Origin: Escherichia coli
GTDB taxonomy: Bacteria; Pseudomonadota; Gammaproteobacteria; Enterobacterales; Enterobacteriaceae
Length of the DNA stretch: 64,000 nt
Reading direction: 5' to 3' (one strand)
NCBI RefSeq assembly: GCF_003334405.1
Contig: NZ_QOWM01000003.1
In this document: positions 19,016 through 19,031 of the stretch, in pieces
Layout: every line of letters starts with the position of its first letter
How positions within the stretch are numbered: position 1 is the first letter of the stretch
The notes under the pieces: generated by a model
What the model was told of the DNA's origin: nothing
Seen by the model: only the letters and a program-made list of their open reading frames with translations
Database searches by the model: none
Translations under genes and position numbers: made by a program

Positions 19016-19031
19016 ATCTATCCAGTGTAAC
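19016..19031. promoter_or_regulatory. LexA (SOS) box upstream of cho
   Basis: CTGGTTATCTATCCAG = CTG-N10-CAG, located about 22 nt upstream of the cho start codon; cho is a known SOS gene. Confidence 0.65.

Follow-up and report, generated by a model that had tools for sequence, protein, structure and literature searches.

The site directly in front of cho in Escherichia coli is, with a probability of roughly 95%, the LexA operator (SOS box) of the cho promoter. It is an already known element, not merely similar to but the same as the published cho SOS box, and it explains why the backup 3'-incision nuclease Cho appears only after DNA damage. The sequence, score, position, and conservation of the box were computed here, and its LexA dependence and damage induction were taken from the literature; what our analysis adds is a corrected set of coordinates, strand, and spacing. 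The window refers to the whole 64,000-nucleotide stretch of DNA that was analyzed, in which the following features were located.

18107..18994, minus strand: coding sequence of cho (ydjQ), encoding the GIY-YIG excinuclease Cho (295 aa, GTG start; ORF list, RefSeq, and NCBIfam)
19001..19004, minus strand: Shine-Dalgarno sequence GGAG, 6 nt before the GTG (sequence reading; conserved at 0.79-0.86 across Enterobacterales)
19008..19027, minus strand: LexA operator (SOS box) of 20 bp, CACTGGATAGATAACCAGCA (leave-cho-out weight matrix and published cho SOS motif)
19010..19025, minus strand: operator core of 16 bp, CTGGATAGATAACCAG, which is CTGGTTATCTATCCAG on the plus strand (single exact match; invariant CTG and CAG)
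19017, minus strand: predicted transcription start at the operator center, 7 nt past the -10 hexamer (from the -10 geometry)
19024..19032, minus strand: predicted extended -10 element, TGTTACACT, with TG at 19032-19031 and the hexamer TACACT at 19029-19024 (conservation outside the 20-mer)
19047..19052, minus strand: putative weak -35 element TTTTTT, 17 nt upstream of the -10 element, within the T-tract CCGCCTCTTTTTT
19224-20051, minus strand: nadE, upstream of and co-directional with cho

The 16-mer CTGGTTATCTATCCAG had a single exact match in the 64-kb window, at 19010-19025 on the plus strand. The sequence-only reading had placed the box at 19016-19031, an interval that in fact contains ATCTATCCAGTGTAAC and lies 6 nt above the true coordinates of the 16-mer. 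The same offset produced its distance of 22 nt upstream of cho, which is 19016 minus 18994; the measured gap between the CAG of the box and the GTG start codon is 15 nt (18995-19009), or 13 nt when counted from the 20-mer. The strand was a further detail that this reading had wrong, as cho and its operator, in the usual notation, both belong to the minus strand, where the 20-bp operator CACTGGATAGATAACCAGCA runs from 19027 to 19008 and the region on the cho strand reads ...CTGTTACACTGGATAGATAACCAGCATTCGGAGTCAACAGTG. The operator matched the consensus TACTG(TA)5CAGTA at 14 of 20 positions, and the spacer of its imperfect CTG-N10-CAG palindrome contained A or T at 8 of 10 bases.

Cho, a GIY-YIG nuclease resembling UvrC, carries out the 3' incision during UvrAB-dependent nucleotide excision repair. 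The identity of the downstream gene as the GIY-YIG excinuclease cho, which had been proposed from the sequence, was borne out both by the RefSeq annotation, in which the identical interval of E. coli LR-50 is cho, and by the NCBIfam profile NF007833 (excinuclease Cho equivalog), which the protein matched at 579.7 bits (cut-off, 367), residues 1-287 aligning to profile positions 1-287 of 289. A queried segment of 1.3 kb was 100% identical to several complete E. coli genomes, and in RefSeq E. coli genomes cho is flanked by ves, nadE, and osmE, with the same neighbors and start codon as in the window. The genes ves (plus strand, ending at 18147) and cho (minus strand, ending at 18107) are convergent, and their 3' ends overlap by 41 nt (18107-18147), an overlap annotated likewise in RefSeq. 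In E. coli Ec-U4-19 (L125; NZ_CM192135.1, locus 1-1936), an IS2 element splits cho into two annotated pseudogene fragments; the LexA box and promoter are still intact in this strain despite the insertion.

The bare pattern CTG-N10-CAG occurred 24 times in the window, compared with 12.8 ± 3.9 copies expected from shuffled sequences. The fit to this pattern reported earlier is thus real, in that the 16-mer is present once as described, although the pattern itself is unspecific: CTG-N10-CAG alone is without discriminating power, and it is the weight matrix together with cross-species conservation that discriminates. A 20-position weight matrix was built from 17 other E. coli LexA boxes (PMC3009722, Table 4), with cho left out, and the heterology index (HI) was calculated in the Berg-von Hippel form from this 17-site matrix, so its values are not those of Lewis 1994. 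With this leave-cho-out matrix, the cho box scored 18.2 bits (HI 7.93), the top score among the 128,000 positions on both strands of the window. The exact probability of a score of at least 18.2 bits is 3.4e-7 per position, corresponding to 0.043 expected matches per window, and 18.2 bits was reached in 6 of 300 random first-order Markov windows. Validated boxes scored with the same matrix spanned 10.9-28.4 bits (HI 0.6-12.8), a range within which the cho box falls; in the leave-one-out ranking it was approximately 11th among 18 published boxes, near uvrD, recA, and ruvA and above uvrB, ftsK, dinB, polB, and dinG. The weight-matrix scoring proposed as a check in the sequence-only reading therefore returned the best site of the window, at a mid-range level among validated boxes.

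The second and third best distinct matrix sites in the window were tandem LexA boxes at 32313-32350 on the minus strand, TACTGTATAAAAATCCTATA (17.4 bits) and TACTGTACGTATCGACAGTT (15.2 bits), which share 2 bp and lie upstream of an ORF at 31708-32310. This ORF has a GTG start and encodes 200 aa, and the proximal box of the tandem ends 2 nt before it. We take the ORF to be ydjM, a known SOS gene; since its boxes were outside the training set, they provided the matrix with an internal positive control. A further match at 55168-55187 on the plus strand, TATTTTTTATGAAAACAGCA, scored 14.1 bits and is without the CTG arm. It was rejected as an SOS box and is probably a chance match, because its score is at the level of chance, the best match in random windows averaging 13.4 bits.

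Conservation of the site was traced at Cho loci that were sought, one genome per species, by the coding-region signature PGVY-x11-YIGK and thus independently of the box. Among the matches listed, 119 of 120 loci encoded Cho homologs and 112 had enough upstream DNA for a box scan; of the latter, 64 (57%) carried a box scoring 12 bits or more in a 250-nt window around the start, whereas 12 bits was reached in only 0.7% of 2,851 control windows drawn from these loci. In 62 other Enterobacterales genomes among these matches, a box of at least 14 bits was located 13-21 nt (mode, 15 nt) before the start equivalent to that of E. coli, in genera including Salmonella, Citrobacter, Enterobacter, Klebsiella, Kosakonia, Cedecea, Pantoea, Erwinia, Mixta, and Serratia. 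The box-anchored alignment revealed CTG and CAG arms that were invariant in 63 of 63 Enterobacterales sequences (2.0 bits per position), with strong conservation at the flanking positions 2 (A) and 19-20 (TA) and only 0.08 bits at the central position of the box. The conservation profile of the cho box is of the LexA type. Within the species, the 30-mer bearing the box was intact in 5070 of 5426 complete E. coli genomes, compared with 3086 of 5426 for the adjacent upstream 30-mer. The 20-mer was unaltered in all five divergent E. coli strains inspected, and the substitution closest to it, seen in two of these strains (L124 and L015), was 3 nt downstream.

No proximal LexA box was found at the Cho orthologs sampled from Burkholderiales, Pseudomonas, Legionella, and Rosenbergiella, and most Cho loci outside the enterobacteria were without one. 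When 50 Cho loci lacking a proximal box were scanned further upstream, most had none and a few had distal boxes. These survey entries (L042, L074, L023, L099, and L035, all upstream of cho homologs) included strong boxes located 530-590 nt upstream of the GIY-YIG motif in Comamonas (23.2 bits), Acidovorax (23.4 bits), and a Burkholderiales MAG (19.2 bits); in Hafnia paralvei, a box was located 256 nt upstream. Such distal boxes may serve a gene that lies upstream or is divergently transcribed. The idea that LexA control of cho is an arrangement specific to Enterobacterales, in which the operator, joined to an extended -10 element (TGnTAYACTG), lies at a fixed 13-21 nt from the start, is in our judgment evenly balanced between true and false. 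If true, this lineage-specific arrangement would show how one SOS gene joined the regulon, and it would not constitute a new type of element. What is mildly new here, and descriptive only, is the fusion of operator and extended -10 element throughout Enterobacterales, together with the missing proximal box at the Cho orthologs sampled from the four groups named above, a few of which have strong distal boxes.

Conservation in the 63 sequences extended beyond the 20-mer, with T at 0.89, G at 0.98, T at 0.98, and A at 1.00 at positions -5, -4, -2, and -1, respectively. Read together with operator positions 1-4, positions -5 to -1 spell TGnTAYACT, and the predicted -10 hexamer shares its final 4 bp with the start of the operator. 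Further upstream, the -35 region showed a weakly conserved CT(T), with C at 0.79 and T at 0.94 at positions -26 and -25. A strict sigma-70 consensus scan of 18800-19300 returned no promoter, a result that is uninformative because the cho -35 element is poor; with no promoter in the consensus scan, the -10, -35, and transcription start positions are inferred solely from conservation and spacing in the sequence. The predicted start at 19017 would give a 5' untranslated region (UTR) of approximately 23 nt.

This geometry points to a simple and testable mechanism of repression, offered by the overlap of the operator with the extended -10 element. In undamaged cells, a LexA dimer would occupy the imperfect palindrome CACTGGATAGATAACCAGCA, spanning approximately -10 to +10 over the predicted start, and RNA polymerase would fail to form a productive complex. 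Since the operator overlaps the predicted extended -10 element and covers the predicted start, bound LexA would block RNA polymerase, and repression is probably exerted by occlusion. Upon DNA damage, RecA filaments on single-stranded DNA would stimulate LexA self-cleavage, the operator would be vacated, and cho would be transcribed. Relief by RecA-stimulated self-cleavage of LexA is established for the SOS system. Given its CTGG...CCAG arms and mid-range score, the box is expected to bind LexA with intermediate affinity.

A different mode of action, in which LexA serves mainly as a roadblock to read-through from nadE rather than occluding the cho promoter, has to be weighed against the properties of the nadE-cho intergenic region. 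Such read-through could be envisaged because nadE (19224-20051) lies on the strand of cho and the cho -35 element is very poor. In addition, a consensus scan of 18800-19300 found no canonical intrinsic terminator after nadE in E. coli, unlike in related genera, its sole terminator-like hairpin being inside the cho coding region. However, the RNA of the intergenic region (19040-19225, minus strand) was predicted to be strongly structured (-63.4 kcal/mol; z = -4.96), and its REP-type hairpins could stop or stabilize the nadE transcript. Besides a REP-type hairpin, GTTCACGCCGGATGCGGCGTGAAC, the region has a second palindrome with an A/T-rich center, an arrangement that presumably represents a BIME/RIP-type repeat, which it resembles. 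All 63 Enterobacterales sequences carried TGnTAYACT joined to the operator, even where a clear nadE terminator lies upstream. The roadblock is disfavored because the extended -10 element is equally conserved where the nadE terminator sits immediately upstream, and the persistence of the fused element despite that terminator argues for a dedicated cho promoter. We therefore consider a primary role as a roadblock quite improbable and retain occlusion of the cho promoter as the probable mode of repression.

The T-tract CCGCCTCTTTTTT at the cho -35 position (19047-19059, minus strand) bears on another published assignment. Related genera have a nadE terminator hairpin that ends in this T-tract; Enterobacter and Pseudescherichia are among the genera in which the hairpin reads GGCGGCGCAnGCCGCC-TCTTTTTT. 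The same T-tract is the cho entry for the "novel Motif 2" listed in Table 5 of PMC3009722. Because the tract is a nadE terminator tail in other genera, the sequence comparison suggests that "novel Motif 2" represents terminator debris rather than a site of regulation.

The possibility that the conservation reflects only the core promoter, transcription start, or 5' UTR of cho, or a site bound by a different regulator, rather than binding of LexA, fared less well than the roadblock. The left arm of the operator overlaps the conserved predicted extended -10 element, and the ribosome binding site follows shortly after, so part of the conservation does have a cause other than LexA. The right-arm CAG (operator positions 16-18), however, is outside the -10 element and is 100% conserved like the symmetric CTG, while the center is free to vary, and invariant symmetric arms around a free center correspond to the contact pattern of LexA. 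The conserved-box loci also scored 14-25 bits on a matrix derived from unrelated LexA operators, and the literature describes cho as damage-inducible and LexA-controlled (PMC3009722, PMC3820734). Conservation for such reasons alone is thus highly improbable, and the LexA operator remains the preferred reading of the site. A chance CTG-N10-CAG palindrome without a regulatory role might be envisaged given the excess of the bare pattern in the window and the approximately 3 sites of at least 18.2 bits expected by chance per 4.6-Mb genome, but a site that is the top matrix match of the window (0.043 expected), that is published as the cho SOS box, and whose spacing from the start codon is fixed across 62 further Enterobacterales genomes, with invariant arms and a variable center, leaves this explanation a negligible probability, and cross-species conservation effectively refutes it.

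SOS control of cho has been documented since 2000-2002. Fernandez de Henestrosa et al. (Mol Microbiol 2000) reportedly identified the cho site and showed binding of LexA to it, and Moolenaar et al. (PNAS 2002) are said to have characterized Cho. In a study of UV-irradiated E. coli, cho was among the upregulated genes whose upstream regions yielded the SOS motif, and the 25-mer TACACTGGATAGATAACCAGCATTC was given as the SOS motif upstream of cho (PMC3009722, Table 4); this 25-mer is identical to the minus strand of the window from 19030 to 19006. A 2019 review places cho (ydjQ) under "Known SOS box" with reference to Fernandez de Henestrosa 2000 and Courcelle 2001 (PMC6590174, Table 1), and uvrA, uvrB, cho, and uvrD are described as normally LexA-regulated (PMC3820734). 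In Salmonella, ydjQ has one box (HI 6.69) and was induced 3.33-fold by nalidixic acid, and a ydjQ-gfp fusion produced no detectable fluorescence (PMC8072944), which indicates low expression and is not evidence against regulation. A literature search for LexA ChIP data naming cho returned nothing directly usable. The weight matrix, the conserved position in 62 genomes, and the published work are all in agreement with the central proposal of the sequence-only reading, a LexA box directly before cho that would be consistent with SOS induction.

Compared with the published SOS box of E. coli K-12 cho (ydjQ), the site in the window has the same sequence, gene, neighbors, and start codon, with no difference. 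Of the other operators, that of ruvA is the most similar in sequence: the ruvAB operator CGCTGGATATCTATCCAGCA matches the cho box on the plus strand (TGCTGGTTATCTATCCAGTG) at 16 of 20 positions, both have the weaker CTGG...CCAG arms instead of the consensus CTGT...ACAG, and their leave-one-out scores are 17.5 and 18.2 bits, respectively. The ruvA box nevertheless serves a different gene, in a different orientation relative to that gene, and is located farther from the start codon, its motif starting at position 29 of the 100-nt upstream stretch compared with position 64 for cho (PMC3009722). Within the window itself, the tandem ydjM operators (32313-32350, minus strand) belong to the same regulon as the cho box, approximately 13 kb away, and likewise lie directly before a start codon; ydjM has two boxes with a 2-bp overlap, one of them without the CAG arm (…CCTATA), whereas cho is served by a single box.
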